The notes under the pieces are model-generated. The model saw nothing but the letters and a program-made list of their open reading frames with translations, was not told the origin of the DNA and did no database searches. Shown here piece by piece: positions 32,251-58,457 of a stretch of DNA of 64,000 bases (within the stretch, counting starts at the first letter, position 1; the number at the start of each line of letters is the position of its first letter). Origin of the DNA: Prorocentrum cordatum (lineage: Eukaryota); contig CAUYUJ010000002.1 in assembly GCA_963575745.1 (NCBI GenBank), positions 1,054,001-1,118,000 of the forward strand, written 5' to 3'. The position numbers and the translations under genes were made by a program.

Positions 32251-32518
32251 TGAAGGGGGCCGGTAGGCCCGACCAGAAGCTACGCCTTAGGCGTAGCAGA
32301 GCTACAGCTTTGTTGTACCGTAGTAACGATAGTCCCAGTAGTAGGGGATCGTCGCGGGATCGACGAGCCATCTCAAGCAAATGATGCTGTGGCTTCGGAG
32401 GCAGATGGTCCACCTCGCACTGAAGTGTAATCAGATCTGGGCGGCCGGCCGCTTGAGCACAAACGGCCGCGCACACACGCTCGTTACCTCTCGCCTGTAT
32501 CCCAGCTCACTTCAGAGT
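32251..32518 (-). repeat. 3' LTR (portion shared with the 5' LTR; may extend to about 32665)
   Basis: About 270-bp direct repeat of 58190-58457, visibly diverged (roughly 80% by eye); ends ...CCCCTTCA on the minus strand. Confidence 0.85.
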
Positions 32519-32675
32519 CGAGGGGGGGAGGGAGACGAAGCGTGAGTCCGCCGTTTCTATACAGTTGGTACAGCAGCTACTATGTTCAAAAGGCAGCAAA
32601 AAGGCGGGGCCGTAAGGAAGGCGGACCCGCATGCAAGTTGCCTCGCCTGCACGTTATTGTGCATACGATTACTCC

Positions 32676-33310
32676 TCAGGCGGCCTCAGACCAAAATGTC
32701 TGGCCAGCCCGATAAGGAGTATGACGCTTGAAGTCATGCTTGAAGTATTGCGTACCTCCCATGACCTGTAGGAACATATTGCTGTCGACGCCCCCCTTTG
32801 CGTGGCCATCCGCGGTCATGTCGCGAGCGTCACACCACTGAATACTATGCACGATTCCTCGCTCCATCATCTGTCGTATCCGACTGATGTGTCCTGAAAG
32901 GGCACACTCAGTCGGCTCTTTTTCAAGTCTTTGCTTGACAAGGACCTAAAAACAGACTCAGCATCTATGGCCAATGTGACCTTGACGCTCAGGCCACCCA
33001 ACTCAAGTACGTCTTTCAACTGAGTGGGAATCAGCGGCCCTGCAAGGAGCTCGTGCGGAGTCACGATCGTGGGATAGTAGTCCTCCAAGTTGCGGGCTGC
33101 TGCTAGTGTCTCTGCTGGACAGCTTGAGCGGACCTGCAAGCGGTGAGACTTGCAGTGCGCATCGATCAAGTGGACGACAGGCCTGCCGGATGGCGTGTTT
33201 CCACGCCGTAGCAGGTTTGCCCCGCGAAAACCATAGCCTTTCACATCGTCACCGGCATCTCCAGTCAGGCGTCGTTATAACCTGAGTCGCTGTGCAGGTC
33301 AACGTCGCCC
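32676..33310 (-). pseudogene. Copia RNase H (frameshifted)
   Basis: DLHSDSGY, AETLAA, LAIDAESVF, WCDARDMTADGHAKG. Confidence 0.8.
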
Positions 33311-34400
33311 GCTGGAATCATCGCTTGGTAGACGATATTATTAGGGCAGGCCTGCAATTTCCCGGTCATCGCGTTCAGTCGTCGCACTTGTATACTGGTC
33401 GAGTCTTGGACACGTTGTAGAGAGACCACATATACCATCACCCACACATGGGTGATTAATGCGTGAGCCAATGCTCCTCTGAGGCTGACGACCATGTCTG
33501 CGACCATCCTTGATGCCGTGGCGCAAGCGTCGGCGCCGGTGGGTTCATGATGCTGCATAGGACGGAGCTGTTTGATGTATTCATCTTGGTCCAATGTGAC
33601 ATTGCCGTCCTCATCCATGGTATACCTCGCAGCACACTTGGTATATGTATGCTTGTTGAGTCTACACTGACCAAACATGTCCTCTGCGCACTTGGCGCAC
33701 TTGTCAGGTGGTGCCCTCAGTGCCGGCCATATTGATATCATCAACATGTTTGGCTGTGCAAGTTACTGCTCGTCTCGATTCTCTCGTCGTAGGACGCGGG
33801 TCTGAGACCGAAGCCCCCCGGGGCCCTTCTGAGCTTTAGTGGGAAACATCTGGGTGCATCCTTGGTGCCGGTGCCTGGCTCAAGGCGCTGCAAGCGGCGC
33901 TTCGACTCGTCGTTGCGTCCGAATCCTGGGAGGGGCCGAAGCGCCGTGGCCAGTCCAGGCGGCAAAGTAAAGCGCGCGACGCGTTCTTCCTCACCAGTTG
34001 CCTCAGCAAGTTCCTGGTGGGTCAACCCTTTCAGGAAGGCCGTGTTGATGTCGAGGGGGGCAATGGCCCATTGCCTCTTGCACGCTGCCGCGCTTGCGAG
34101 TAACTTCTGGCTTGGCCGCCGCGCCGCCCCTGAGGGCGCTTCGAAAACTTCAAGGTCCATAAAACCTAAGCACCGGGCGCATATCTGATGGTACGTTCCA
34201 TGTCGCATTTCTCGTTCTTCACGAACTTCTATTTATGCACGTGCCTCGATGTCATGATGTTTGGTTTTATATAAAAATATATCGATATATTGCATCTTGA
34301 AACACTTGTCAAACCATGTCTTGAGTTCGGTGTATAGGGCCTTTGATACTTTCTCGGGGTTCGCCTGGACGTCGACCTGCGCGAAGAAGTCGCCTTCGTT
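33311..34400 (-). pseudogene. Copia reverse transcriptase (frameshifted)
   Basis: ELKTWFD, GFMDLE, LDINTAFLKG, GTKDAPR, and KHVDDI at about 33730-33752 (YVDD equivalent). Confidence 0.85.
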
Positions 34401-35399
34401 GACAACAGCAGCTCGCTTTGCAGCGGAGGTAACATATACTCCCAAGGTGGTTGCGCGGCTGGCATCGAATATCCTGCGCTGTTGTTCAGATACGATTACC
34501 TTTGACATTTCTGCCGTGGAGCGGAGTTCTACATATTGACAGTTTTCGTCTGAGTCCACTCCGTAACTGTGGTCTTCGACCGTCGAGCACAGTGGTACAT
34601 GATACGCCTCCTCGATGTCGGAGTCGCGCGGGTGCCCCACCTTCGGCAAGTGCCCCCGCTGTTCTTCAGATACTGTGGCCGACGCACTGTTGTCGGGAAT
34701 CACATGTGCGGGTACAGTGTAAAGGTCGCCCAGTGGAGTTGCCTCCCGCAGCTCCCTTTCATCGCGTAGTTCTGTATACCGCACTTCCATAATATGTTCC
34801 TCAAGGTCCGCTTCCGATTCTTCATATATCGTAGGAAGCCGTCCACCCTCCTGCGGTGGTTCGGCTTCTGGGGCTTCTCCGGCGGTTTCGTCGTGCGTCG
34901 GTCTTTCCGCCAGTTCCTCGAACTTTGTCATGTCTGGGTCAGAGCCCGCTTGAGGTTTAGTGGACTTTAGGCCCTGGATGATTCTCGAATGTTCTGAGCC
35001 AGTTATATCATGAATATTGAGGACAGTGCCTTCTGCTTTGTAGTAGTGGAATCCTGGATTCACATCGTTGTCATAATGGGCCAATGTGCCGCTGTCAGCG
35101 TAAGCCACCGGAGGTAGCTCGTGGATACCCGTGGCCAACCTAACATAGACTACGTTCTCACTGCAGAAGAAGTTTCTGATAAGGTATTGTAACGCCAGAT
35201 GTTCTTTAGGATATAGTTCGCTTGCGCTTGTCATCTGATGCGTCCCCCTTGTGGCCGGGACATAGTCAAGTGTCATCGCAGGTCTCCCCGCAGGTAGACT
35301 GGCTACGAATGTCAGTGCTGTCCGTAGTGCAGTGTTGTCGGAGCCGATTTCCCTGGTTATCAAAACTTCGATGTAAAGTGAATGTCGTGCGTCGCCATA

Positions 35400-36338
35400 T
35401 TGTACTTGGTCATCGCGGTTTCCCGCTCGAAGATGACTTGACCCCTGCCGGGATCATGTCTTACGACAGGGAACGGGCCACTCCTGCCTGTCCTTCGTAG
35501 TTGCGCGGCGATGATAGTCGACCAAATCTCCTTCGTCGTAGTAATGCTGACCGGTGATAGTTGTCTTAGTGCGCAATGCACGATGGGTCTTAGCCACTGC
35601 AGTGGCCCGTGTGATAGCTTCAATGCATACCTTACGGATCACCTGTTCTTGAGGATGATCCTACGTTTCCGTCGGCCGTTCGTGATCCAGAACAGGCAAG
35701 TCAGGAAGCATTGCTGGTTGCCGCCCAAACAAAGCGCTGCATGGAGACACCTCGTTATAAAGAATACATTCGTTGGCGGCAAGCAGGGCGTCATGCAGTA
35801 GTCGCGTGAACACAAGAGTCATGTCTAACCTTTTGAGTTCAGCTTCCATAGCGTGGAGTAGGTGGCGCAATATGCCATTTCTGGCATCGATCGTCACTGT
35901 TAAGGCCCCCCCCCATCGGAGTAGAGTGCCTTGGCAGGTCCGAATTTCATCCAGCACTGATGATAATACTGGTCCTTGTCTGACCCGGTATGGTATCTCC
36001 ATTCCAATAGCATAGCGAATACAACGATCGATGATGTGCAACTTATTTTGTTCTTGTTTGTAGAACGTGCGGTCGCATTCGGCTTCTTCGTTGAACTTGC
36101 CAGGTAGCGCAGTGGATGGCATGGCGGCATGCCCAGGCCTGTCCCAAGGCATGCGCTCCCGACATGAAACGCAGACACCTTTGATCAGGTTGAGCGTGAC
36201 GTTGTTCAGACCTGCCTTGGTTAAGCTGGGCCTCATCTTGGATTCTGCAGCACAAAACCAGCGCACGTGTAGCTTCCGCAGCTCGCGTGCTACCACGCTT
36301 GGGTCAAGGCTTCGTGCGTCTTGTAGCTTGATTTGCAC
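35400..36338 (-). pseudogene. Copia integrase (decayed)
   Basis: LRKLHVRW...CVSC zinc-finger remnant, FNEEAECD, HIIDRCIRY, FGPAKALYSDGGG, SPCSALFGRQP. Confidence 0.8.
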
Positions 36339-37049
36339 ATCGAATCTTGAGACTGGAAGTCTTGGGCGTGCAGCAGGGTTACCCGCAGGTGGCGGTGGAG
36401 GCGGATCTCCTCCCTGCTGTCGGCCGCGTCTGGCACTGATCTGCGGTAGTCAGGTGCGGTCATCCGAACCACCCGCTCCGCTCGAGGCAGGTTGCCCCGC
36501 GGCAGGTTCAGCAGCGTGTCTGCCTGCTGTAAAGTCGTGGCTGCTGGCGGCAGCTGTGGGACTGGCCCTAGAGCGGGGTCTTGGTGCTCGTAGCCGCATA
36601 AGTGGTAGTGCGTATTGCGTCTCGGGTGAATGAGCTGCCAGTTCGGCAGGCGCTTGATGTACCTGTCCGTGGTCGTCGGGCAAGTTTCAGGGTTTGGCAA
36701 ACTTGCATGTGCCAGGTGCCCGTAAATGGCAAGGCTTGTTCTGGCCGTAGTTCTTCGTGCAGCTCGGACATTCCCAATGGTGGCCCCCCTTATCATATCG
36801 CCTGCAATGTTGAGGGTTTCTGTCATGTGAAGGAGAGTGCATGTTAACATTATCTGCACATGCAAGACATCCTAACCCTCCCGAGGGTGGTCTCGTGATC
36901 GGCCCGTCGGGCTATAGAGGGATACTTGGGTCGTCAAAATCAAATCCCCTCGCGTTGGTGGTGACGAGTGCAGTGCGAGAGCAAGGGTGACCATGAAAGG
37001 GATCGCGGCTCACTTGGAATACATCGCGCGCGATCTGAACTGCATCGAC

Positions 37050-37665
37050 GAAAAGGGCCTGCATCCTTGAAGTATAATGTTCAGCCACGGACAGTTCTGA
37101 ATTACATACCGAGGCATGCTGATGATGGCCAACGCACCGCTTTCGTTCAAAAGGTGTAAGGAAGGAAAAGACGATGGTTGGCAATCGTCTCGGTCGGTTT
37201 CCGTATCAATGCCCCATGAGCATCACGTAAGCCAGACTCATATTCATTTTGCAAATGCCCTTGCATGTGGCCAATGGTGTCCATGGCGGTATCTGATCCA
37301 CCCAAGTACCCACTGGTTGTTCTCGCACGTCAAACCGTGGAAGGTCGGTCGTTTTGACGTAGGGCAATTGTTCCACAACGCTTTAAATGTGGAAAGTATT
37401 CGTTCTGCTGTTCATTCCATGTGTCCGAATTGTCTTGGGAGAGTTGAAATAGGAAGGTAGCCCAGTCGTTGTGCAGTTGGGTTATAGTATGACAGCCTTG
37501 ACGAAACACACGTATAAATAACGCATCGCTGCATCCTGGGCATCCTTGTTTCCAAGGTCAGCATATGATCGCTTGTCTACACTTCCTCCGGCGGGCTAAC
37601 CTTGGCTGAACTCTAACTGCGAGATTCCCCCACTTCCCCCATGCAGTTCCAACATGCCAACCTTG
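37050..37665 (-). pseudogene. Cytosine-5 methyltransferase-like domain within the Copia polyprotein
   Basis: MLELHGGSGGIS (SAM-binding motif I-like), VIL*PNC (motif IV-like), VREQPVGTW (motif VI-like) and RKPT occur in the correct order; stops are present. Confidence 0.6.
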
Positions 37666-39759
37666 TTGCGCCCATAAGAGAACGTTGGGATTCTGGAAAA
37701 GACCAAAAACATCTGCGCGTGCATCCACAGGTAGCCCCGCAAATTGCGCGACGAAGGTTTCTTCTTCAGCATCGCTCTCCGTGTCGGAGTCAATGGGGGC
37801 GTCGGTGTAGTAGGCGCTACATCCGAGACCCTTTAGGTCGTCACCGCAGTCGCCGTTGCCTTCCTCGACTACCTTGGGTGTCTTGCGTGGCCTGATGCCC
37901 GCTTCTTTGTCGGCTTTCTGCTTTTCGATTTCTTTGTTTCGGGCGTCCGTCCGCCGGTAGTGCTGTCTGTTGTTCAGTGTCGGATGAACCGAGCGTCGGG
38001 AATTCGGGGATCGAGGGGAGCACGAGGCCACGCTCAATCGAGGGGCGGGTGGGGGCGATCGTCATCCACGAACGTGACTCGCCTTGGGCGCGGTCGCTGG
38101 CCAGCTTGTAGGAGAACCGGTCCTGGCGGTTCCCAATACAATCGAGTACGAACGTGTGTCACACCATGTGGTAACGGTGCATTGAAATAATACCCGATAG
38201 GCTGATCCTGGATCTTGATGCCTTGTATAATAGTATGATCATCAACTTTCATCGTTACTCGTCTCACGACATGGTCCACTTCAGGGCCACTCTTGGGAGA
38301 CTGAACGTAAATTCAAGCTCCTTTATCCACTCGTGTGGGTGGTAAGATGTACAGCACTCGTGTGGTTTCCCTTTGTTGTTATGCAAACCAATTTGATTAA
38401 CCAGTCTCGCAGTCATGATACCCAGTGTTTTGTTACGACATTCTGCCTTCTGGTTGCCTTGGCCATGCCAGTCCAACTCATGCTCGGCAAGTTTTGCAGG
38501 TTTCCCTGCAATCTGGCACGTGCATCTCCACAGGCTAGTTGGGATGCGCGCGTAGGTAGTTGTCACCTGCAGATGCGATCCTCTTGGCAACTTACTTAAA
38601 CGGTCATATTGCATACCGAAGTGGCAGCATCGAATAGCGCGACCTGCATGTCTAGATCTTCAATCGCATCTCGCATGGGACCTCGTTTCCAGAAGTAGCC
38701 TGGTGGTCCCACAAGTACTATAGACATGCGTAGAGCCCGCGCCTTAGTTATTACATTTCGGATGCGTCGTGTGGCCCCGAGCGCTTTCCACGCATGCTAA
38801 CGCGCCAGTCAGCGGGCGTTGCCACCCATAGCAGTAGATAACCCTCCGAGAGTAAAGCGCCCAAATACTATGTACCAGTAGAGGTCATAACCTCTGTATG
38901 TGTGATACGGTCGCACATGTAAACGCGAGCTCGGAGTTCAGCGCAAGCTGTCCGCGCGTCCTCAATGACAAGTGCACGATAATGATAATGATGCGATGAG
39001 CGTTCATTTCTGCAGCGGCCACACAGCCGGGCCCGCTGCTGTCCTTGGCAGCCGCGCAGCCGGGCAGGCCAGTGCCCCTGGCGCGCACCGCCGGCGCCTG
39101 GGGAAATAATGCAGGCCCCCCCGCGCCAGACAACATAACCTCAGTATTCGGCCTGTCTAGGCAAGCGCGAGTGGCCGTGGCACGCGCCTGCCCCCGTCAC
39201 TCATTTTCAAGCAACGGGGGCGTCCAAATGCCCGTGCCACGCTGCGCTGCTGAGCCACTGCTCGAAGTGCAAAGATCGTGCTTCTCAGCGGCATTATTCC
39301 CTCCAGCAGGTGTCCCTGCCTTAGCGTCGGGCGGCGTCCACATGCTGCCCTCCTCGTAGATGGCCTGGTAGGCCTTCGCCTGCAAGTTCCACAGGGCGAA
39401 GTCCTGGTCGGCCAGTGTGGGGGCATTCCCGAAGGGCGCGCTCCTGCGATGCCAGGTCTTCAAGGTGTCATTCACCAATGACTGGATCGTGAAAGCAGAC
39501 GTCTCCGCGTTAATGGAGAAGCAGATGCCCTTGGTGTCCTGAGACATCATATGTGCATGGGCATCGCAAGTAGCGGGTGCCACCGCGCTGCTCGATGCAG
39601 GTTGCCCTGCGACTGGCTCTGCGCCAGCTGCCCCCCTGACAAGCAACAGGGCCTCTTCGCTGTGAGGATTGGCCGTGGTAGTAAACGACATCGACCCTCG
39701 ATCCTGCGTCGCGGCCCCGTGCTCGTCGACCTTGGGCGCTCAGACCCCCGAAGGCGTTT

Positions 39760-40344
39760 TCATGCAATCCAATGCTCTGGCGCCTTTTCCAGGAGGAGCT
39801 TGTACATCTCAGAGCCGGGGGTGGCCATCTTCTCCTGCCCCAGATCCAAGATCTGGATGGCCCCCACGTTGGACATGCTCCTCGTGCCCAGGATCGCAGC
39901 AATATGTCCCCCTGAAGCCTCATCCACGTTAGCTGAGTAGGTGTCCAGTCTCGGCACAGCAGGTGCCCCCGCTGGATCTCCTGTCTTCTTGCACGCAACT
40001 TTGCAGTGCAAGGCCTTGTCGCAGATAACGGCGCCATGCCCCACTCCCGACACGCAGGGCCTCTTCGTCAAATTCAGCTTCTTGGTATCGTGTCCGTGAA
40101 AGCGGGATACACGTTCGAATGTCTGTGCCGTTTTCAGACCGACGATGTGGATGTTGCTTGCAGTGTCAAGAAGAATCGCCAGCATCCCATCCGCCATGGT
40201 GGTCCCACTTTTCGCGGCCAGGGCCCATTCATGGCGTTCTACGAATATACCTGGCATCTCGGACAGTGTAGTTCCATGCTGACCCTTGCGACGCCTCTGC
40301 TCCAACACCCAATCGTTCCTCGTCAGGGGCGCGAAGACGATCAT
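39760..40344 (-). pseudogene. Retroviral-type aspartic protease region
   Basis: ILLDTASNIHIVG, then VSGVGHG and AAILG. Confidence 0.7.
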
Positions 40345-42435
40345 GTACCCGCGGGCCTCCTCCTCAGTGATGGGGTTCTAATCGAAGATCCAGGCCGTCG
40401 GGCACTCGTCGTGCATGTGTGGGTGGTGTGAAGATGAGAGCGGCATGTTCATCAACGTATCCTCATCGGCTCGCATGGCTACCTGTCCATCTGTGTTCAC
40501 CATCAACACAGTGCGTAGCATGTCACGCTCGGATATGGCACTATTGCCGCTGCGTGCGCTTGCCGGGCTTTCCGGTTTGCGCTGGCTACGCGGGCGGGTG
40601 TCTCGCCCGTGCGGAATATTTGCACGTGGTGCTTGGAACCACTGCGCACTTCTCTCGGTGGCCCGCACCATGCGTCTCAGCCACATATCATTGGCAGGCA
40701 ACGCTGCAGGCGTTGTCGTAGCAGGTGCCCTTGCGTTGCTGGCTGATTCAGCTACCAATGGCATAGGCGTATATGTAGCAGGCGCGGTCGCTGCTGTCGC
40801 CTGAACCGCATTGGATGATGAAGCAGGTTGCCCCGCAGGTGTCGTTGCGGCGGCAACTGCCGCGTTGTCCGTTATTATCGCCGTGATGCGGTTGAGCTCT
40901 TCGCGACGGTCCCTGAGCTCGTTAGCCCCATCTGAGTATCTCTTCATGACGAGTTGCTGCATTCTGATCTCCGGGGTGGACGTAGTAGGACTCAGCTACG
41001 ATGAGACCAGCGCCCCTGCAAATGGCGCAGGGGGCCTCAATTGCGGCACGTCCTAGGGCACCGGCCAGCTGTCTATCCACATGTGCGCGCGCCACTCGGC
41101 CCCAGCACTGCGCATGGAATCTGTAGCTACGCTGGGGCCTCCAGACCTTGATTGATGAAGTTGCCCAGGCATGCACATTGCACACTTGTTGAAGTCACCG
41201 TCGCGCATGACCGGTGGTGTCGCCGATGGCCTGATGCGCGTCTGGTGCTCCAGAGTGGATTCACCAACCTCGTACTGGATCGGTGGAAACGATGGCGGCT
41301 GCATGGCTGCGAGCGCCGCCAGATTGAAAACAGGCGCCCCCGCAGAAATAGGAGTAGCAGGTTGCCCCGCACGACCCGTCGGCCGGTTTGCCGTCCGCTC
41401 CTGGTTGCGGCGCTGGCGGGCCAACAGCATTGAGAGGCTGGCCTGCTGCGCCTCGTGGATGGCCAGGATCTCCTGGCGCAACTCCCCCATGGATGATGGC
41501 GCTACCAAGCCGGGGGCCAGTTGCATCGCATCGGGATCCATAGGAGTAGCCAGATAGCCGCAATGGGGAATCTGGCCCAGGATTCCTGGCGCGCACCCAG
41601 AGCCGCGCGCCAGCTGAGACTGATAGACGTCGTCGGCGGTCGCCCGAACATACGGGTTATCCGGCTGCGCTCCCACGCGAAGGTTACCCGTGACCTGAGA
41701 ATGGTAGTCAGGGAACAACGGGGCGTCCATCGGCGGCGCTGCGGGGCGCTCAGAAGCTGTCGGATCGCATGTCGGGTGGCTGAAAAACGCTGGGACATAT
41801 CCGTACCTGTTGGGTTTGTCCAGTGATGGATTTGGGTCTGGAACAAACCCCCAAGGAGGTGTCCAGCTGGCGCTAGGGAGGTCGATGCCATCCCTACGCG
41901 AACTCTGCGCGGCCTCGCGCATCTGCCGGAACATCCAGTGTTGCCGACCCACCAAACTTTCAGTCCGAGCAGGTTGCCCCGCATGTGGACGTGGCGAACG
42001 GCGATGTCGCCTGCAAGGCCTGGTAGGGCTGTGGGTCCATCCGAATGCTCTGGAGCCTCGCCTGCAGGCTGTTGGTGCTCCCAGCACTCGGTGGAGTCCC
42101 AAATGGAGTCGTAGCCCTGCTCGCAGGCGCAAGCGACGCAGGTTGCCCTGTAGGTGCTGGCAACTGTTGCGCCTGAGCACGCCGTCGTTGGGAGTATACC
42201 CGTTTGACGTCATGCCAGACACGCCCGCACTCTGGGCCTGAATCCATGACCCATCTGGTCCCCCTGCAGGTGTTCCCGCTTAGTGCCCCTCTTGCAACAG
42301 AAATGCCGCGGCGAACGACCACCGGCATGGGCGTCGGTTCGGGGCACTTCAAATTTTAGGTGGTTTTTGGAATAAGCCAACCCTTCAACGATGATGCATC
42401 ATTTCGAAATTCATATAGGTCGTCAAAGAGTAACA

Positions 42436-43241: not shown

Positions 43242-43319
43242 GAGTGAGGGGGCGGGCGCGGGCGACGCGGGCGTCGTCGAGCCGGCGGACCTCGTGGCCC
43301 CCACCTTCCCTGTCGATGG

Positions 43320-43820
<501 letters not shown>

Positions 43821-44563: not shown

Positions 44564-44658
<95 letters not shown>

Positions 44659-47989: not shown

Positions 47990-47997
47990 GATGTATA

Positions 47998-48041
<44 letters not shown>
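47990..48041. repeat. (TA)n microsatellite interrupting the retrotransposon ORF
   Basis: Read directly from the sequence. Confidence 0.95.
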
Positions 48042-48043
<2 letters not shown>

Positions 48044-49569
48044 TTGTTCTGTCTTTGGTGCACGAAGAAGTGCCTGTGGCTCTGCCCCTGCGGGTATGCA
48101 TGGCCTATAAGATACAAGCCCTCTGTCAGGATTAAGCTCCCCACTATCTGGTCTTCCGAGCGCCATATTCCTGATGGTAGCCTTGCCCCTTAACAGTCAG
48201 GTCATACGTGTCAGCGCCAATCCGTCTTACAATCGCGGTTTTAATCCAGCCTGCAGTTCCAGCATGATGGGCGACAACTCTTTCTGGGGATTAATCCATG
48301 TCTTCCGTGCCTGCGTCAGCAGGGTCAATGATGGCGTCCGCCACGCGGGCGACGTCCGCGAGCGCGGAGAGGGCGTCGGGGCATCCCGAAGCACATCCTG
48401 GAGGGGATTCCGCTGTGGGGCCCGCTGCTTCGGCCAAGTCTTCAGCTTCATCACCTTCTGGCTGGTCGTCTTCTTCTTGCTGAGACGAAACAAGTTTCCC
48501 CGCGCGCCGCTCGCGATTGAATGCCTCTCTCCCATGTAGCCTTGGCACGGGCTATTTCATGATCTGCAGCTGCCTTGTAACTCAGGTGCGTCAGCTGCTC
48601 TCTGGGTGGAGTTTTGTTCGGATCGGTGAAACGCACCCGACCGTCGCCGTCGGACCAGACCCATTGTGTCTTTCGGAAGTTGGGGCTCCTTGAGGAGCGC
48701 CCCGCGGGGCGGCCGGGTCTGCGGTCGGCGCGCGCGAAGCAAGTGCAAACAACATGTCGGTGAAGCTCCCCTTCTTCGATGGCGGCCCTCTTCGTGTCCC
48801 GCTTTACAAGGGCGTCTTGTGATCTGACGTCCCCTGTCCTCTTTAAATGACTTTGCCTTCGTCATTTCGCCCGACATTGCGAAGGGAGTGCCAGTGGCGG
48901 ATATGGCTTTCAATCCAACCTTGGTCGTGGTACCATTGCGTCGCATCCGGGGGTCTGCGCTGGCGAGCCAATCCGGCAGTCCGGTAGCTGACAGGGCGCT
49001 CTAGCTCGCCGCCTGGATATTCTTCTGGAGGACATTGCCTCTGAAGAGGGTGCCCCCGCAAGCGCCGCTTCCTCGGTGGAGCGCCAGGCGCACTGCCCCT
49101 CCTTGGCGGAGTCTTCGGGGCCCTCGTATCAGGAAGGCGAGGGCGCTGGAGGCCGCTGGGGCGAACGCCGCTGGAGCGCGCGCGCGAGTGTCCGCGCGGA
49201 TAACTGCGGGACCGACCGCTACGTAGCACGCGCGGGTCAACTTCCCACTTTTCGTCATCGTCGCCCGAGCGGTCCGCGCGTCTCAAGGCCCGACGGCTCG
49301 CCGGTCGCTCCTGGCGGCTCGGGAGACGCCCCGCGGCTGTAAATGTATATTGAATTCCGTCGTCGTGGCCGAACTCGCGCTGGATGCGCTCCGAGCATCT
49401 CGCGGGTATCCCCGCAGAGGGTCCTCATCGTGCACTTCCATGTTCATCGGATTTCCACTTGCCTGAGGAACAGGCATCAATTGTATTTCCTCGTCTGTCG
49501 CAGGAATTGCGGCTTCTTAAACCGCGGGCGCCCCCGCCATTCTTTGATCTGCTTCGGCGGGCATGTAGA

Positions 49570-52500
49570 AATTGTTGACGCTTCGCGTATCCCCACCAGC
49601 CCATCCAGAAACGATGCTCAGGGGAGTTGAGGTGATCAGGGAAGTCGGGGAGCATGCAGAATAACAAAGGGCGGGGGAAGCTGTCACAGACCCCGAGAGG
49701 GGGAGGATGGAAGAGGAGTCGTCGTCGTCGTCGTCGTCGTCGGAGGAGGAGGAGGAGGGGGAGAGGAGGAGGAGGAGGAGGAGGAGGAGGAGGACGGAGG
49801 AGGAGGAGAATCGGAGGAGGAGGAGGAGGAGGGGAAGGAGCTTCTTGGGGGTCTTTTGAGGGCCTCTTGGAGGGCTTTTTGGGCGCCTTGGGGCATCTTG
49901 GGCGCCTCTTGGGACCCTCTTGAGGCGCTCTGGGGAGCCTTCGGGGCGCTTTTGGGGCCATCTTGGAGGGAGTCGATCAAACAAGAGGGGGGGTTTAATT
50001 AGCGCCCCCCCTCGGAAGCCCCTAAAATCGCCTCTTGGACCCCTCTTGGAACGCTCTTGGAGTGCTCTTGGGCGCTCTTGGGGCCGTCTTGGGGCTCTTT
50101 TGGGGCTCTCTTGGGGCCCTCTTGGGCCATCTTGGAGCCATCTCCAGGCCTCGGATGGCCATCGGAAGCGAAAAGGCGAGAAAGCAAAAATCATTGATTT
50201 TCCTTAGGTTTTGGGACGATTTTGGCCTCTTCGGGGCCTCCTTGGGGAGCTGTTTGGCCACTTGGAGTTATCTTGGGGCCGTCTTTGGGCTTCTTGGAAC
50301 CATCTTAGGAGCCATCGTGAGCGATCTTGCGCTATCTTGAGCCATCTTGGAGCTCATCTTGGGTTCTCTGAGGCGCTCTTGGAGCCGTCTTGGGCCATCT
50401 TGGGACGCTCTAACTACCCGCGGCCCCCCCCGTCCAGGTCCAGGGGAGGGGGTAGGGGGAGGGGTAAACCCCTCCCCAAGGGGGAAGAGGGAGGGGTGGA
50501 AGAGGATCTGCTCTAGACCACCTAGAGCAGATCCTCTTCCAAGCAGATCCTCTTCCACCCCTCCCTCTTCCCCCTTGGGGAGGGGTTTACCCCTCCCCCT
50601 ACCCCCTCCCCTGGACCTGGACGGGGGGGGCCGCTGGTAGTTAGAGCGTCCCAGATGGCCCAAGACGGCTCCAAGAGCGCCTCAGAGAACCCAAGATGAG
50701 CTCCAAGATGGCTCAAGATAGCGCAAGATCGCTCGAGATGGCTCCTAAGATGGTTCCAAGAAGCCCAAAGACGGCCCCAAGATAACTCCAAGTGGCCAAA
50801 CAGCTCCCCAAGGAGGCCCCGAAGAGGCCAAAATCGTCCCAAAACCTAAGGACCAGCCCTCGGCTAAGGTAGTGGTCTAGAACAGATCCTCTTCCACCCC
50901 TCCCTCTTCCCCCTTGGGGAGGGGTTTACCCCTCCCCCTACCCCCTCCCCTGGACCTGGACGGGGGGGGCCGCGGGTAGTTAGAGCGTCCGGAAGCGAAA
51001 AGGCGAGAAAGCAAAAATCATTGATTTTCCTCAGGTTTTGGGACGATTTTGGCCTCTTCGGGGCTTCCGAGGGGGGGCGCTAATTGAACCCCCCCTCTTG
51101 TTTGATCGATCTCTTCCAAGATGGCCCCAAGAAGCGCCCAGGAAGCCCCAAGAGGTCCCAAGATGGCCCCAAAATGGCCCCAAGAGGCCCCCAAGAGGCC
51201 CCCCGGAGGCCCCCAAGAGACCCCCAAGAGGCCCCAAGAGCCCCCCCAGATGCACCCAAGATGCTCCAAGAGGCCTCGGCGAGAATGCCTAATCATTGAT
51301 TCTACACAGGTTTTAGCCACATGGAGGCCTCTTGGGGGGGGGCACGGATTAAGATGACTCCAAGAGCGTCTGGGAGAGCCCAAAATGACCTCCAAGATGG
51401 CTCAAGATATCCCAAGATGTCTCATAATGGCTTCCTCTGTGTGCTGCCCACTTCTCTGATCGAGGCAATTCCTCTGGGCATCGTTTCTGGATGGGCTGGT
51501 GGGGATTCGCGAAGCGACAACAATCAATGATTTTTGCTTTCTCGCCTTTTCGCTTCCGATGGCCATCCGAGGCCTGGAGATGGTTCCAAGATGGCCCAAG
51601 AGGGCCCCAAGAGAGCCCCAAAAGAGCCCCAAGACGGCCCCAAGAGCGCCCAAGAGCACTCCAAGAGCGTTCCAAGAGGGGTCCAAGAGGCGATTTTAGG
51701 GGCTTCCGAGGGGGGACGCTAATTAAACCCCCCCTCTTGTTTGATCGATCTCCTCCAAGATGGCCCCAAGAAGCGCCCAGGAAGCCCCAAGAGGTCCCAA
51801 GATGGCCCCAAAATGGCCCCAAGAGGCCCCCAAGAGGCCCCCCGGAGGCCCCCAAGAGACCCCCAAGAGGCCCCAAGAGCCCCCCCAGATGCACCCAAGA
51901 TGCTCCAAGAGGCCTCGGCGAGAATGCCTAATCATTGATTCTACACAGGTTTTAGCCACATGGAGGCCTCTTGGGGGGGGGCACGGATTAAGATGACTCC
52001 AAGAGCGTCTGGGAGAGCCCAAAATGACCTCCAAGATGGCTCAAGATATCCCAAGATGTCTCATAATGGCTTCCTCTGTGTGCTGCCCACTTCTCTGATC
52101 GAGGCAATTCCTCTGGGCATCGTTTCTGGATGGGCTGGTGGGGATTCGCGAAGCGACAACAATCAATGATTTTTGCTTTCTCGCCTTTTCGCTTCCGATG
52201 GCCATCCGAGGCCTGGAGATGGTTCCAAGATGGCCCAAGAGGGCCCCAAGAGAGCCCCAAAAGAGCCCCAAGACGGCCCCAAGAGCGCCCAAGAGCACTC
52301 CAAGAGCGTTCCAAGAGGGGTCCAAGAGGCGATTTTAGGGGCTTCCGAGGGGGGGCGCTAATTAAACCCCCCCTCTTGTTTGATCGATCTCCTCCAAGAT
52401 GGCCCCAAGAAGCGCCCAGGAAGCCCCAAGAGGTCCCAAGATGGCCCCAAAATGGCCCCAAGAGGCCCCCAAGAGGCCCCCCGGAGGCCCCCAAGAGACC

Positions 52501-53788
52501 CCCAAGAGGCCCCAAGAGCCCCCCCAGATGCACCCAAGATGCTCCAAGAGGCCTCGGCGAGAATGCCTAATCATTGATTCTACACAGGTTTTAGCCACAT
52601 GGAGGCCTCTTGGGGGGGGGCACGGATTAAGATGACTCCAAGAGCGTCTGGGAGAGCCCAAAATGACCTCCAAGATGGCTCAAGATATCCCAAGATGTCT
52701 CATAATGGCTTCCTCTGTGTGCTGCCCACTTCTCTGATCGAGGCAATTCCTCTGGCCATCGTTTCTGGATGGGCTGGTGGGGATTCGCGAAGCGACAACA
52801 ATTGTTGTCGCTTCGCGAATCCCCACCAGCCCATCCAGAAACGATGCCCAGAGGAATTGCCTCGATCAGAGAAGTGGGCAGCACACAGAGGAAGCCATTA
52901 TGAGACATCTTGGGATATCTTGAGCCATCTTGGAGGTCATTTTGGGCTCTCCCAGACGCTCTTGGAGTCATCTTAATCCGTGCCCCCCCCCAAGAGGCCT
53001 CCATGTGGCTAAAACCTGTGTAGAATCAATGATTAGGCATTCTCGCCGAGGCCTCTTGGAGCATCTTGGGTGCATCTGGGGGGGCTCTTGGGGCCTCTTG
53101 GGGGTCTCTTGGGGGCCTCCGGGGGGCCTCTTGGGGGCCTCTTGGGGCCATTTTGGGGCCATCTTGGGACCTCTTGGGGCTTCCTGGGCGCTTCTTGGGG
53201 CCATCTTGGAGGAGATCGATCAAACAAGAGGGGGGGTTTAATTAGCGCCCCCCCTCGGAAGCCCCTAAAATCGCCTCTTGGACCCCTCTTGGAACGCTCT
53301 TGGAGTGCTCTTGGGCGCTCTTGGGGCCGTCTTGGGGCTCTTTTGGGGCTCTCTTGGGGCCCTCTTGGGCCATCTTGGAACCATCTCCAGGCCTCGGATG
53401 GCCATCGGAAGCGAAAAGGCGAGAAAGCAAAAATCATTGATTTTCCTTAGGTTTTGGGACGATTTTGGCCTCTTCGGGGCCTCCTTGGGGAGCTGTTTGG
53501 CCACTTGGAGTTATCTTGGGGCCGTCTTTGGGCTTCTTGGAACCATCTTAGGAGCCATCTCGAGCGATCTTGCGCTATCTTGAGCCATCTTGGAGCTCAT
53601 CTTGGGTTCTCTGAGGCGCTCTTGGAGCCGTCTTGGGCCATCTGGGACGCTCTAACTACCCGCGGCCCCCCCCGTCCAGGTCCAGGGGAGGGGGTAGGGG
53701 GAGGGGTAAACCCCTCCCCAAGGGGGAAGAGGGAGGGGTGGAAGAGGATCTGCTCTAGACCACCTACGCCCAGAGGGCTGGTGGGATT
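49570..53788. mobile_element. Cluster of CCAAGA-rich Helitron2-like non-autonomous elements (tandem and inverted copies)
   Basis: End A is AATTGTTGACGCTTCGCGTATCCCCACCAGCCC and end B is CCACCTACGCCCAGAGGGCTGGTGGGATT. Contains 639-bp tandem units and a palindrome centred at 52801/52802. Confidence 0.65.
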
Positions 53789-53888
53789 CAACATCGGCAG
53801 GTTGCCCCGCGATGGGCATGCCCAGCAAGTCTGCCAGGTTGATCTCACTGCGGCCAGCGAACATCTTCTTCGAACAGCTCGTCGGCGT

Positions 53889-54869
53889 AATCCCACCAGC
53901 CCTCTGGGCGTAGGTGGTCTAGAGCAGATCCTCTTCCACCCCTCCCTCTTCCCCCTTGGGGAGGGGTTTACCCCTCCCCCTACCCCCTCCCCTGGACCTG
54001 GACGGGGGGGGCCGCGGGTAGTTAGAGCGTCCAAGATGGCCCACGACGGCTCCAAGAGCGCCTCAGAGAACCCAAGCTGAGCTCCAAGATGGCTTAAGAT
54101 AGCGCAAGATCGCTCACGATGGCTCCTAAGATGGTTCCAAGAAGCCCAAAGACGGCCCCAAGATAACTCCAAGTGGCCAAACAGCTCCCCAAGGAGGCCC
54201 CGAAGAGGCCAAAATCGTCCCAAAACCTAAGGAAAATCAATGATTTTTGCTTTCTCGCCTTTTCGCTTCCGATGGCCATCCGAGGCCTGGAGATGGCTCC
54301 AAGATGGCCCAAGAGGGCCCCAAGAGAGCCCCAAAAGAGCCCCAAGACGGCCCCAAGAGCGCCCAAGAGCACTCCAAGAGCGTTCCAAGAGGGGTCCAAG
54401 AGGCGATTTTAGGGGCTTCCGAGGGGGGACGCTAATTAAACCCCCCCTCTTGTTTGATCGACTCCCTCCAAGATGGCCCCAAAAGCGCCCCGAAGGCTCC
54501 CCAGAGCGCCTCAAGAGGGTCCCAAGAGGCGCCCAAGATGCCCCAAGGCGCCCAAAAAGCCCTCCAAGAGGCCCTCAAAAGACCCCCAAGAAGCTCCTTC
54601 CCCTCCTCCTCCTCCTCCTCCGATTCTTCCTCCTTCTCCGTCCTCCTCCTCCTCCTCCTCCTCCTCCTCTTCCCCCTCCTCCTCCTCCTCCTCCGACGAC
54701 GACGACGACGACGACGACGACTCCTCTTCCATCCTCCCCCTCTCGGGGTCTGTGACAGCTTCCCCCGCCCTTTGTTATTCTGCATGCTCCCCGACTTCCC
54801 TGATCACCTCAACTCCCCTGAGCATCGTTTCTGGATGGGCTGGTGGGGATACGCGAAGCGTCAACAATT
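53889..54869. mobile_element. Full about 980-bp copy of the same element, inverted
   Basis: Near-identical reverse complement of 49570-50520 with both ends intact. Confidence 0.75.
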
Positions 54870-55331
54870 CTCGAGGGACATGCTGGTGCTCAAGTATCTG
54901 GCAGCCATGAACTTAGAAACTGCAACTGAGCTGTCGGCAGGGTCGGCTAAACCGCGCCCCCCAATCGACGCGCTGCATGTCCGAATCAGCGCGCGCGAAA
55001 TGCATCGACGGACCTCTGCCCCCCCCAATCGCCCTGAGGGCATTCGCGGCGAACGTGTTGCGTGCTATGGCAGGTATCAAATTCCATTGATTTGCCGTTA
55101 GCATCCTTCGGGTTGCCCCGGCGCCCCTTTACCTTTTCCTGAAGTGCGCCTGCGGTTCCTACCTGCGCCCCGGAACAGCTCTTCGCATTGCGGGCCGGTA
55201 AGGGGCGCCGAGAAAGCGAACGCACCTCTGCCGCGCAGTCGCCGTCGTTTGCCCTTACCCTCGCCTCGACCCTTACCCTGTCCCCTGCGTGCCCGCGGGA
55301 TAGTACGTCGTACCTTGCGAACTGGCTTATT
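54870..55331 (-). pseudogene. Gag C-terminus with GK-rich stretch and degenerate zinc knuckle
   Basis: KPVRKVRR...GKGRGEGKGK...GNPKDANGKSMEFDTCHSTQHVRRECP (CX2CX4HX4C with the first Cys replaced). Confidence 0.7.
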
Positions 55332-56762
55332 TAATCGCTTCGCTCATTCCGCCGGCCCGTCTTGTGCCCTCGCTGGCGTTTGGGCTCCCCGAAGCTTCTT
55401 GCGGGCCTCTAGGGGGCGGCTTCTCGGGAGCCTATTGGAGCTTTCTTGCGGCCTGTGGGGGCCGAGGGGCCGAAATGTTCGTCTAGCATCCTCGTCTGGG
55501 CTTCTCTTGGAGCCGTAGTGAGGCTGTTTTCGGATGTATTGGAGGCGCGTGGGGCCGTCTTGGAACACGCATGGACCGCGCCGAGGTCATCTTTGGAACG
55601 TTGTGGGAGCCTCTGAGGGCCGAGAGCTAGAAGTGTTGTTTGGTGTTCCTTTTGGGGCGTCCTTGAGGCCCTCGTGGGCTGTCTAGGAGGCCTCTTGGCC
55701 TGTCTTGGAGCCCTGTTGGGCAGTCTTGGGGCGCTGTTGGGGAGTCTTGGGCCCCTCTTGGAAGCCTCTCGGGCCGATCTTGTAGCACATCGCTAGCGCA
55801 TGCTTGCGTGCTGGAGGGGTGGGGTCTCCTGAGGGCTTCTGGGGGTCTCTTGGGACCTCTTAGGGGCCTCGTGGCTCCTCTTGGGGGCTTCTTGGGGCCG
55901 ACGGCTGGACATGTTGTTTTGCTTGCTTGCGTGCTGGGGGGTGGCATTTGGGGGCTCTCGTGAAGGCTTCTGGGGTGCCTCCTGGGACCTCTCAGGGGCC
56001 TCTGGGGTTCTCCTGGGGGCTTCGTACGGGCGAAGGCTGGACATGTTGTTTCGCTTGCTTGCGTGCTGGGGGGTGGCATTTGGGGGGTCTCCTGAGGGCT
56101 TCTGGGGGGCCCCTTGAGACCTCTCAGGGGCCTCTGGGGTCCTCCTGGGGGCTTCTTGGGGCCGAGGGCTGGACATGTTGTGTCGTGTTCCCCCCCTGGG
56201 GCCGCTCTTGGGGCGTTCTTGGGGCCCTTTTCGGCCGTCTTGGGGCCCTCTGGGGCCGTTTTGGGGCCATCTTGGCTCGTCGTAAGGCCCTTGTGGGGGG
56301 CTCTTGGGCACTCTTGAAGCGGTCTTGGGGGCCTCTTGGGCCGTCGTCGGGCGTTGGAAAGCGGAAAGGGTGGGAATGCCAAAATCTCACCAAAACCTAA
56401 GGAAAACCAATGAATTGTGCCTATTGGGGCCCTCTTGGGAGTGCTCTTGGAGGCCTCCTGGGGCGTTTGGGGGCCACATGGAGCGCCTTGGAGCGATCTT
56501 GTTGCATCTCGGAGTCCTCTTGTAGCATCTTGGGGGCGTCTTGGGGCGTCTGGAAGCTCTCTGGAAGACCTCGAGGGCGGCACCCAGGAGGGAGAACATC
56601 TCTGACGGGAACCTCCCGGGACCCTCCCGGGAGTCTCCCGGGACCCTGCCGGGGTACTTTTCGTGGGGGGACCCCCAGGGGCCGCCCCGCGCGCGCGAAG
56701 AAGAATATTGTAAAGCAGTCACCGGAGATCCTAGCACGCCTCTGGCCCGTTGGGCCGGCGAA
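55332..56762. mobile_element. Second Helitron2-like non-autonomous element with internal about 122-bp tandem repeats
   Basis: Ends AATCGCTTCGCTCATTCCGCCGGCCC and CTAGCACGCCTCTGGCCCGTTGGGCCGGCGAATT share the inverted core CGCCGGCCC. Removing the element restores the gag frame. Confidence 0.6.
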
Positions 56763-57800
56763 TTCATAAATCGTCTCCACCTGCGTCTGTGTTTCTGATA
56801 TCCTAAGAACAGCCATTGCGCCTGCTGTTCTTCCGTGAGATACGCAGGCATGTCGGAGAAGTCTAGGGCATTCGCCTCGTCGTCCGAAAACGCGTCAACG
56901 TCGGTTCCAGAGCCGAAGTCGGACTCAACGAAATGCCCCGTAGAGCCTACTAGGGCAGTGGTTTGCGTGGGAGCCGCCGTATCCAGCGGCCCCCGAATCC
57001 TGGCCAAGGAGTCTTGCAACCCCGCGGCCGAACCACCATTTTGAATTCATAGCGCGGTGGTTTCCGTTGGTTGCGGTTCGCCGTTCCAGACGTTAGTAGC
57101 AGGCTGCCCTGCATCAACTTCTGCATGGAAGGTCTCGGCACGGTGGCCATGGCTGAAGATGCCACCGATATCACCAGGGGTTCGCTCAGCGATGTGGGCA
57201 TATGATCTCATGCGTTCAAGCAGAGAATCACATTGCTGCTGGTCCCTGCGGTGGTTAAGTTGCTGTTGGAGTTGTTGTGCGCGCGACGTCCCCACTCCTA
57301 AAGCTCTGACCAGAACAACCGCTAGAATTTGAAAGTTGGGGATGTTAAAGCCTGCCGCTTCCGCTTCGTAGCGGGCTATCTCGAAGCATGCCAGAGTCTG
57401 GTCGATCTTTCCTCCCGCATGGATTCGGAAGTCACTGCGAGCTGTACCAGAATTGAGTTGGCGTTCCTCTTCTAGGTTCTCGAACTTCGCGCTTAAGAGG
57501 AACATGCTGTAGGTGGCGCCGTCGGTATGGCGGCCACCTATGTTACACGCCGAAATTGATCACTGCTGGGGGAACTCTCACGGCTATGGTCCGCGCGAGG
57601 CCTCCCGAGCCTCGCTGCAGTGCTGCAACTTGCTGGGAGGGCGTCGTTGTGCCTGTGGCCACGTTGATCAAGGCATGCACCTCGCGAGCGACTCCGCGGA
57701 AAAAGTACCTGGCCGGCCGGGTCCCAAGTGGGGGCCGCTTGTCTTTGCGTCGTCTCCGCCACGCATGTGTCCCACCGCACACCCGATAGCAACCCATACG
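56763..57800 (-). pseudogene. Copia gag (decayed)
   Basis: APTWDP..., QQVAALQRG, FLLSAKFENLEEERQL, FEIARYEAE, YQKHRRRWRRFM; lies directly downstream of the LTR and PBS. Confidence 0.65.
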
Positions 57801-58173
57801 CACCCCAAGATAATCACACCAATCCAATGGCTTCGGAGGTCGTAGTCGGATGTGGTTGGCTGGGGTTTGTTGTGCTTTGTCGTAAACATGCGTGGGGATG
57901 GAGACGGCACGAATTGCATCGCATGTTTCCATGCGTTGAACCTTCGAAATAGTTTCCGATTGGAGTAGGTGGGTGGAGTTCAGGAGTGTAGTACTCGAGT
58001 CAGAGGCCTCTGCGATCGCAGAGGTAACACTGCAAGTGTCCTTGCGGTTGTGCATCGTTATGTACATTCCTCCGCGCAGACCCACTGCACCCTGATGTTC
58101 CACCATGTCAGTAGTCCACCAAATAGTGCCGTGGATGGTGAAGAATAAAGTAAAGGCTGGCCACCAAAGGCCA

Positions 58174-58185
58174 GCGCCACTACCA
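58174..58185 (-). promoter_or_regulatory. Primer-binding site
   Basis: TGGTAGTGGCGC begins 4 nt after the LTR end (TTCA-AACT-TGG). A TGGTAG start is typical of initiator-Met tRNA PBSs such as that of Ty1. Confidence 0.7.
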
Positions 58186-58189
58186 AGTT

Positions 58190-58457
58190 TGAAGGGGGCC
58201 ACTGGACCCGACCAGAAGATACGTTTTAGGCGTAGCACAACTCCAGCTCTGTTGTACCGTATTCGCGATAGTCCCAGTAGCAGGGGATCGTCGCGGGAGC
58301 GACGAGCCATCTCAAGTAAAATATGTTTTGGTCTCGATGGCAAATGGTACGCCTCGCATTGACGTGTAGTCAGATCTGGGCGGCCGGCCGCTTGAACACA
58401 AACGGCCGCGGACACACGCTCTTTACCTCTCGCCTGTATCCCAACTCACTTTAGAGT
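58190..58457 (-). repeat. 5' LTR (outer part truncated by later insertions)
   Basis: Direct repeat of 32251-32518. Confidence 0.85.

Follow-up and report, generated by a model that had tools for sequence, protein, structure and literature searches.

A giant Ty1/copia-type retrotransposon split by four insertions in Prorocentrum cordatum

Ty1/copia-type (Copia) elements are usually 5–7 kb long and encode little beyond Gag and Pol. Can 26 kb of interrupted, Copia-like coding sequence on the minus strand of one Prorocentrum cordatum contig be the remains of a single such element? The sequence lies in a 64,000-nt stretch of contig CAUYUJ010000002.1 (positions 1,054,001 to 1,118,000; “the window,” whose first letter is position 1 throughout), for which an original prediction had proposed one giant Copia element split by nested insertions. 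We estimate a probability of about 90% that positions 32245–58457 represent one copy of a giant ~15.8-kb Ty1/copia-type long terminal repeat (LTR) retrotransposon, lying on the minus strand and split by four insertions, here called A, B, C, and D. The proposal is supported, with corrections, by a pair of LTRs with a 5–base pair (bp) target-site duplication and by colinear relatives; 15,760 nt are left after the insertions are excised.

The bounds of the element were set by its LTRs. A repeat search returned a direct repeat in two copies of 270 nt with 87% identity (32249–32518 and 58188–58457). After the ends were refined to 32245–32518 (274 nt) and 58186–58457 (272 nt), 236 of 272 aligned columns were identical (86.8%; Kimura two-parameter distance of 0.147), and both LTRs read ACTCT...AAACT on the minus strand. 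The word TCCCC (minus strand) abuts both LTRs on the outside, at 58462–58458 and 32244–32240, and constitutes the 5-bp duplication; the chance of such a match is greater than 1 in 1024 because the LTR ends were selected among a few options. With its insertions, the element covers 26,213 nt, of which insertions A to D together with one copy of each duplication make up 10,453 nt. The 5′ LTR is adjoined by a putative 15-nt primer-binding site that begins with TGG and is conserved in a relative described below. ARAGORN detected no tRNA gene in the 64-kb window and hence none there to compare with the primer-binding site. The window is GC-rich (52 to 69% per 2 kb), and neither the repeat search nor tblastn revealed a second copy of the element elsewhere in it.

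Intact relatives allowed the order of the parts to be followed across the insertions. A library search with the window open reading frame (ORF) encoding Tpt1 returned P0002, a 1627-residue protein with Tpt1 and RING domains, and a metagenome scan returned an 8780-nt contig, L001, that is 99% identical to P0002 and contains a single open frame of 2653 codons (P0003). P0003 and P0002 are colinear with window positions 58195–39350 across all four insertions, with P0002 extending the colinearity to 39350 (Table 1). The first 694 nt of L001 correspond to the RNase H end of pol, being 81% (90/111) and 64% (48/75) identical to window 33250–32697 and, at the DNA level, 76.8% identical over 525 nt. They are followed by a 288-nt LTR (726–1013) with the same terminal words as in the window, by the same primer-binding site, and then by gag; a pyrimidine-rich tract before the 3′ LTR is also common to the window and L001. 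Since one contig joins the pol end, the LTR, and gag, both halves of the window element are linked to one family. This comparison had been fixed beforehand as the one that could refute the original prediction: the relative proved to be colinear with the 5′ half and to carry the matching pol end and LTR, and the prediction was not refuted. The pol-LTR-gag order of L001 1–1030 could reflect two elements in tandem with a common LTR, a circle with a single LTR, or an assembly made through identical LTRs, and each of these still means one family.

Other relatives were more distant. P0138, from a related lineage, contains Gag, a zinc knuckle, RING, a protease-like motif, integrase, and RVT_2, in this order and without Tpt1, in one protein of 3301 residues; its Gag shares the RRWRR-x-GKPVR word. 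Sixteen named relatives of the Tpt1 and DNMT-like parts (P0154–P0169), with 55 to 71% identity to the window, come from one EukProt record labeled Pyramimonas sp. Compared with the source of the window, this may mean either that a label is wrong or that the family crosses lineages. A scan of viral contigs returned no relative.

We then examined the reading frames after removal of each insertion core and one copy of its 3-bp duplication. Junction A was restored to one frame (...RRWRRFMNKPVRKVRR... / FLGYQKHRRRWRRFMNKPVRKVRRTIPRAR), with RRWRRFMKKPVRKIRR / FLGYRHHKRRWRRFMKKPVRKIRRTIRREF as the counterpart in P0003, and so was junction B (...SMSLENYADELFEE...). When DNA excised in silico at approximate borders was searched with tblastn, a check suggested with the original prediction, single alignments crossed every junction: P0003 72–552 over A, P0003 551–774 over B and C, and P0002 54–899 over D. 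Gaps in the P0003 alignment fall where insertions A, B, and C had been predicted, and the predicted coordinates were right to 1 to 4 nt. The rejoining of the frames that had been claimed is seamless at A and B but needs a one-base correction at C. At the junction that had been regarded as uncertain (~44000–46990), there is indeed an insertion; its borders are instead 43240–47064, and it splits the Tpt1 domain itself. Two alternative borders were discarded on the way. Contig ends at 55327 and the second ATT ruled out an A border near 55349, at the inverted repeat, which would have left 17 bases too many, and a placement of D at 43207–47044, given by alignment ends, was replaced by 43240–47064 from the inverted ends. 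Separately, the stretch 47975–48528 is ~430 nt longer than its counterpart in the intact relative and includes a (TA)24 run (47994–48041); the surplus may stem from an expansion or from a fifth, small insertion.

Insertion D is almost wholly satellite: Tandem Repeats Finder detected 53-nt units (25.6 copies), 63-nt units (6.3 copies), and 11-nt units (21 copies), and (ATCCTC)n, (ACA)n, and (AACA)n runs are also present. A block that is so large and repetitive could be the place where two partial copies were joined, making the 26 kb a chimera whose LTRs never belonged to one insertion; the low LTR identity and the lack of a single relative spanning the whole element would fit such an origin. 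We nevertheless consider it barely credible. The alignments of P0002 and P0003 continue across D with no residues lost or duplicated (residue 1409 meets 1406), D has its own 12-nt inverted ends, and the same hairpin motif, described below, occurs on both sides of it. Furthermore, the 5-nt word is equal outside both LTRs, and L001 links both family halves.

As an addition to the original prediction, B and C turned out to be inverted copies of one high-copy repeat, with 98.6% identity over 960 nt. Insertion C also contains internal tandem units of 639 nt, and A, B, and C each carry arrays of an 11-nt unit. When each insertion is read in its own orientation, the 3-bp duplication is ATT in every case. 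A and C share an unusual asymmetric end, in which 18 to 19 nt with CGCTTCGC are followed by an inverted repeat. By their sequence features, A, B, and C are thus assigned to related noncoding, high-copy repeat elements that duplicate ATT; no transposase or superfamily was identified for these repeats.

Contigs of four public runs (X1 to X4) were compared with window positions 53400–56000. Depth over 53400–54878, which comprises the inner end of C, the Copia piece, and B, ranged from tens to tens of thousands and was highest in X2 and X3 (one bin was skipped as repeat). In the bin at the end of A (55314–55400), depth was 627 to 9367 in the four runs compared with 0 to 32 in the preceding bin, and it was only 0 to 77 in the Copia stretch 54879–55313. 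Contigs of other copies diverge at the insertion termini, namely, at 53887/53888 (X2, X3, and X4), 53790 (X4), and 55327 (X1 and X4). Two contig joints that skip B were not used, their sides being just 21 to 22 letters.

These data bear on the near-palindromic arrangement at 49570–54869, where C, a 100-nt piece, and the inverted B follow each other. It could be an assembly artefact of a very high-copy repeat, given that the B/C repeat type reaches k-mer depths in the thousands in the organism-labeled runs X2 and X3, that the arms are nearly identical, and that no contig bridges them. We regard an artefact as very unlikely, since B and C each have their own matching 3-bp duplication in the expected orientation and removal of B restores the frame exactly. 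The 100-nt piece, too, is true Copia sequence in the proper order and orientation: it resembles P0003 around residues 700–745 when compared by eye and carries a hairpin at a conserved place.

Table 1. Features of the window element in 5′ to 3′ order of its coding strand, followed by tblastn alignments of the relative P0003.
Feature	Window positions	Strand	Evidence or remark
Target-site duplication, upstream copy, TCCCC	58458–58462	-	Equal 5 nt at 32240–32244
5′ LTR, 272 nt, start ACTCT, end AAACT	58186–58457	-	Terminal words common to L001 LTR
Putative primer-binding site TGGTAGTGGCGCTGG, directly after 5′ LTR	58171–58185	-	L001 equivalent TGGTAGCGGAGCTGG
Start of frame 1: hydrophobic N-terminal segments and Gag-like region	56765–58170	-	P0003 72–559; frame shifts, stop at 57047–57049
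Insertion A, 1430-nt repeat	55332–56761	.	ATT at 55329–55331 and 56762–56764
Putative basic Gag tail and zinc knuckle	54869–55328	-	P0003 551–675; knuckle at ~55040–55085
Insertion B, 974 nt, inverted relative to C and matching its outer 960 nt	53892–54865	.	AAT at 53889–53891 and 54866–54868
Copia piece between B and C, 100 nt (YADELFEE...AGQPADVE)	53789–53888	-	Hairpin at 53797–53810
Insertion C, 4212 nt, family of B	49574–53785	.	ATT at 49571–49573 and 53786–53788
Conserved region between zinc knuckle and Tpt1	47404–49570	-	P0003 764–1056, 1097–1409
Pre-Tpt1 segment and N-terminal part of Tpt1 (...SEWLTTATRHKPFH)	47068–47403	-	P0002 54–174, E 1.8e-13
Insertion D, 3825 nt, 12-nt inverted ends AGAGTGAGGGGG, satellites	43240–47064	.	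Possible GAT at 43237–43239 and 47065–47067
Tpt1/KptA, C-terminal two thirds	42439–43236	-	Pfam PF01885 and P0002 alignment
RING-H2 finger, metal-ligand positions mutated	40979–41170	-	P0002 899–959, 52% identity
Putative aspartic protease region (LLDTASNIHIVG)	39790–40330	-	Colinear with P0002 1199–1401 (LMDIGSNVNIVG)
In-frame TGA, then C; ends frame 1	39197–39199	-	Translations
Start of frame 2: module (38375–38043) and DNMT-like domain (37917–37110)	37110–38375	-	P0154; stops, frame shifts
C2HC fingers and integrase	35466–36875	-	P0004, E 3e-57
Reverse transcriptase, Copia type	33274–34232	-	P0064, P0061, and P0027 align
RNase H and end of pol; stop codon 32676–32678	32679–33259	-	L001 and P0064/P0061 alignments
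3′ LTR, 274 nt	32245–32518	-	Repeat search and LTR alignment
Target-site duplication, downstream copy	32240–32244	-	TCCCC, minus strand
P0003 72–559	58195–56741	-	tblastn, E 2.8e-100, 45% identity
P0003 551–628	55334–55107	-	tblastn
P0003 619–658	55135–55016	-	tblastn
P0003 655–675	55026–54964	-	tblastn
P0003 764–796	49513–49415	-	tblastn
P0003 803–950	49370–48846	-	tblastn
P0003 953–1056	48843–48529	-	tblastn
P0003 1097–1409	47974–47045	-	tblastn
P0003 1406–2637	43206–39790	-	tblastn

The domains of reading frame 1 were assigned from Pfam and from the relatives. In the zinc knuckle (CX2CX4HX4C), the first Cys is lost in the window copy (FDTCHSTQHVRRECP) and intact in P0003 (CDICGSTQHFRRECP). 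Pfam gave no match to a Gag or capsid family in window ORFs or relatives, and neither Pfam nor ESM Atlas (queried with L001 3397–4044) gave a lead for the region between the knuckle and Tpt1. Three features at the start of the element were also observed: an ATG within the 5′ LTR at 58310–58308; a long frame that is open from inside the 5′ LTR through the primer-binding site, where FKLGSGAG is found in both the window and L001; and two hydrophobic, membrane-like segments ahead of Gag (window 58310–57900; L001 860–1500) that are conserved in the window, P0003, and P0138.

When 118 minus-strand ORFs of at least 70 codons were searched with Pfam, the sole credible match was to Tpt1/KptA, at 42439–43041 (E 6.3e-10, 39.8 bits compared to a cut-off of 26), and the remaining matches were of low complexity and below cut-offs. 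The Tpt1 label of the original prediction is therefore confirmed by a profile match above cut-off. The domain in P0003 starts at residue 1387 and scores 61.8 bits. The relative’s domain also matched mammalian TRPT1 chains (PDB 7yw3 and 7yw2; E 1.9e-12), with which the blocks IRA-x-GH, HGT-W, and GR-x-IH align. The window copy keeps the RH of ...TRHKPFH and the arginines of LRPSNGH and GRQFVHG, which may be the catalytic Arg-His...Arg...Arg set of Tpt1/KptA. Since the domain is split by 3.8 kb, it cannot be active in the window copy.

The segment between Tpt1 and the protease had been described as a linker and, judged from the relatives, contains a RING-H2 finger. In P0003, the finger is recognized by Pfam as zf-RING_11 (33.8 bits compared to a cut-off of 27) and zf-RING_2, and the window copy has RSYRFH in place of CGHTFH. 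Together with Tpt1 and the DNMT-like domain, this raises the accessory modules to at least three, rather than the two enzymes that had been counted. Region 39790–40330 is a candidate aspartic protease by motif and position only, with no family match. Frame 1 ends at an in-frame TGA, past which the frame stays open for ~100 codons, and read-through is therefore inferred. This context suggests read-through rather than frameshifting. Thus, the element probably has two reading frames separated by the TGA, and not the single long ORF that had been expected.

In the first part of frame 2, P0154 aligns with window 38375–37110 with identities of 63, 36, and 50%, and a match of P0154 to P0017 (E 4e-11) links the window to a DNMT-like domain. 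Pfam gave no DNA_methylase match at E ≤ 1 in P0012, P0017, P0154, P0004, or P0064, and a sequence search of P0012 against PDB chains returned no methyltransferase. We therefore turned to a model of P0012 (894 residues), which was built with a 16-sequence alignment and had a mean predicted local distance difference test score (pLDDT) of 64.7; pLDDT was 72 to 93 over residues 111–290 and lower before them. In a structure search of 48,161 chains, P0012 residues 74–292 matched DNMT3A (4u7t_C; Z of 9.4, root mean square deviation of 4.6, and 174 aligned residues), 3g7u_A (Z of 9.3), M.HhaI (10mh_A; Z of 8.7), and DNMT1, MET1, and Dnmt2 (Z of 7.3 to 8.5). Values of 7.3 to 9.4 are middling, and plain Foldseek on the 894-residue model returned integrases only, the methyltransferases emerging just in the wider structure search. 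Residues 503–832 of the same model matched integrases with Z of 15 to 18.

The consensus of 16 relatives contains ELFGGxG, APPC, and EQP. The window has ELHGGSGG, PNC, and REQP in a broken frame, and P0154 has PQT at motif IV. These words may represent C5 methyltransferase motifs I (FxGxG), IV (PC), and VI (ENV). According to the model, a C5-methyltransferase-type fold is predicted for the distant relative P0012 only, and family membership is not implied. The methyltransferase-like label of the original prediction is thus supported by fold in P0012; it is not based on the window copy, and profile searches fail to detect it.

A library search with the integrase ORF (35664–36449) returned 462 proteins at E ≤ 0.001, 181 at E ≤ 1e-10, and 8 at E ≤ 1e-30; 9 of the 150 matches listed were taken for comparison. 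The window reverse transcriptase aligns with P0027 (36% identity, E 1.5e-24), a protein with an RVT_2 match of 76.9 bits and an rve match of 31.4 bits, just below the cut-off of 32.6. The window reverse transcriptase ORF alone gave RVT_2 as its only match at E ≤ 10 (E 0.047, 13.7 bits compared to a cut-off of 31.6). P0064 and P0061 are colinear with 36869–32715 through integrase, reverse transcriptase, and RNase H, in agreement with the predicted order, and colinear tblastn alignments of P0002, P0004, P0064, and P0061 establish the order protease-integrase-reverse transcriptase-RNase H. In the N-terminal parts of P0064, P0061, P0027, and P0138, which belong to lineages without Tpt1, an H-x-D...H segment precedes the DNMT-like domain. 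When inspected by eye, it recalls 2-oxoglutarate/Fe(II) oxygenases, a resemblance of sequence motif; in the window’s family, a different module occupies its place.

A further feature of the element lies in its nucleotide sequence. The peptide AGQPA recurs in the translations, and the underlying DNA, GCGGGGCAACCTGC, can fold into a GCAA loop on a 5-bp stem that includes one G-U pair. Against an expectation of 1.45, the window has 15 matches to this 14-mer (≤2 mismatches), all on the minus strand and all in the element’s own sequence rather than in its insertions; all 14 matches in L001 are on the coding strand (0.10 expected). Of the 16 strict window sites, six fall in regions that can be aligned to P0003, and each of these coincides with an L001 site, one of which is read in another frame in L001. 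P0003 uses CCT for Pro at 14 of 14 AGxPA sites, and 9 of its 10 AGQPA sites read GCR GGG CAA CCT, a codon set expected at a frequency of 0.0098 per site. Since the next base after the 14-mer is variable, the constraint ends at base 14.

We also scanned for hairpins with a free stem, using the pattern GC-NNN-GNRA-NNN-GC. Sites were fully paired in 13 of 18 cases on the coding strand of the window element, 20 of 21 in L001, and 7 of 7 in L003, compared with 1 of 16 on the opposite strands and 0 of 23 outside the element. Overall, 40 of 46 coding-strand sites were paired compared with 1 of 39 controls (opposite strands plus outside). Since 16 of the 40 paired coding-strand sites have other stem sequences, the stems show covariation. 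When the 14-mer was folded with 10 nt of flanks, the best fold was the 5-bp stem with a 4-nt loop at four of six sites; one site had an extended stem, and one had another register. Folding Z-scores were only −1.2 to −3.4, and Rfam returned no family at gathering score for 32000–58700. Altogether, GNRA-tetraloop hairpins occur at about three per kb of the coding strand, most of them in frame as Ala-Gly-Gln-Pro-Ala. Judged from sequence comparison, the positions of the hairpins and their base pairing are under selection, and the structure is predicted to be of RNA type.

It could be argued that selection acts on the peptide, for instance, as protease cut sites between modules, with the hairpin as a by-product. 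In L001, 14 of 17 strict sites are in frame as AGxPA, and strict sites lie in linkers, none being found in the Tpt1 domain between positions 4066 and 5974. A peptide signal seems unlikely to us, because the codon choice is fixed far beyond usage and constraint stops at base 14. A perfect 14-mer at L001 7053, near window site 41370, is in another frame (RGNLQ), and a variant at 3390 is also off-frame. At the end of pol, L001 599 reads AGKPA, but its window counterpart (32633–32646) lies behind the pol stop. Moreover, where this loop is closed by other stems, pairing is maintained by changes on both strands of the stem, and the G-U pair makes the motif strand-specific. We take the hairpins to be RNA signals, which would most likely serve to package or recognize the 16-kb genomic RNA at many dispersed sites. 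More tentatively, and with somewhat less than even odds, this giant Copia lineage may tag its own RNA with dozens of identical in-frame GNRA hairpins that would be read by Gag or a captured domain to select, fold, or protect it. We know of no such dispersed RNA tagging system in retrotransposons.

Several observations weigh against a single giant Copia element of this kind. At junction C, ...AGQPADVEF meets FYMPAEA with one surplus base after excision, and at junction D, ...RHKPFH meets ...NNHISDRF with a one-base frame shift. No contig of X1 to X4 bridges any junction, and the nested arrangement therefore rests on the present assembly plus the borders. None of the relatives found extends over the full element in a single DNA molecule: L001 ends at the protease, and 39350–38375 has no aligned relative. 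L001 was possibly assembled through identical LTRs and therefore links families rather than one physical copy. The LTR ends are ACTCT...AAACT and not TG...CA, and there is no purine-rich tract before the 3′ LTR, where the coding strand is C/T-rich instead. The reverse transcriptase and integrase ORFs of the window are below Pfam cut-offs on their own. Lastly, just 13 of the 18 free-stem sites pair in the decayed window copy, and what the hairpins and the accessory domains do is in every case inferred.

A history of the locus as one element can be proposed as follows. A giant Copia copy would have inserted long ago on the minus strand, generating the 5-bp duplication, and would then have decayed through many frame shifts and stops; four noncoding repeat elements would subsequently have landed in the decayed copy, each with a 3-bp duplication. 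Hallmarks of Copia can still be recognized by eye in the translations, but since there are many stops and frame changes, the window copy is dead. The reconstructed layout would comprise, in frame 1, the LTR, primer-binding site, hydrophobic N terminus, Gag, zinc knuckle, ~2 kb of further sequence, Tpt1, a long linker, RING-H2, and protease. After the in-frame TGA, frame 2, probably reached by read-through, would comprise the module, the DNMT-like domain, C2HC fingers, integrase, reverse transcriptase, RNase H, and the LTR. A live member of the family would presumably follow the path of any Copia, from transcription and formation of a virus-like particle to reverse transcription from the primer-binding site and integration. 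As to the accessory domains, our guess is that Tpt1 may modify RNA or cDNA ends, RING may serve ubiquitin-dependent removal of host factors, and the DNMT-like domain may methylate or bind DNA. About 10 kb from the element, the window contains a host gene for UTP-glucose-1-phosphate uridylyltransferase (UDP-glucose pyrophosphorylase) at 19329–22152 on the minus strand, with at least two exons and Pfam matches of E 6.4e-75 and 6.5e-30.

Among known elements, the closest description in the sources we consulted is that of SmTCL1–4, Ty1-copia-like elements of Symbiodinium microadriaticum, of which SmTCL3 is ~10 kb at full length (Chen et al. 2017, PMC5776459). As described in the available part of that paper, they are likewise LTR elements that are large for Copia and have integrase before reverse transcriptase and RNase H; these three domains alone are named there. 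If the species label of the window holds, both hosts are also marine alveolate algae. Compared by description and not by sequence, the window element is longer, at ~15.8 kb, and has Tpt1, RING-H2, a DNMT-like domain, and dispersed hairpins in addition. In the accessible text of a 2024 review, Chen et al. 2017 is the sole work cited for Copia. DNMT-bearing retrotransposons, SymbioLINE-Dnmt, SymbioDIRS-Dnmt3, and KnitGypsy-Dnmt3, have been described, belonging to LINE, DIRS, and Gypsy, and, according to the portion of the paper at hand, no DNMT domain is present in the Copia elements of Symbiodinium (de Mendoza et al. 2018, PMC5890265). As described there, these elements have a cytosine-methyltransferase-type domain built into the Pol polyprotein, as in the window’s family. 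Unlike them, the window’s family is Copia, and its domain fails Pfam and is seen by fold in a distant relative alone.

The Tpt1 domain resembles cellular Tpt1/TRPT1/KptA in the Pfam match of the window and in the blocks that align between the relative and TRPT1. In contrast to the cellular RNA 2′-phosphotransferase, it lies inside a retrotransposon polyprotein, between Gag and RING, and is cut by D. Our literature search, which did not cover supplements, found no Tpt1-bearing retrotransposon, and “phosphotransferase” has no occurrence in the available text of an overview of accessory domains (PMC6338049). Within the same scope, the giant Copia family appears to be undescribed in print.

Single-stranded RNA viruses have dispersed packaging-signal stem-loops along the packaged RNA, also within coding sequence. 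The hairpins described here are similar in being many, short, and on the coding strand, with a shared loop motif. They differ in that stem and loop are nearly uniform and mostly in one reading frame.

By encoding an RNA-end enzyme, a ubiquitin-ligase finger, and a methyltransferase-type domain, a Copia lineage of ~16 kb extends the range of known captures by LTR retrotransposons, and the metagenome relative means that the family is not confined to one assembly. The dead copy in the window documents how one high-copy repeat family that duplicates ATT has struck the same element repeatedly. Selection on RNA structure within coding sequence could be tested on the hairpins; if the lineage does tag its own RNA with them, this would explain how a Copia element came to triple its size and to carry Tpt1, RING, and DNMT-like cargo.

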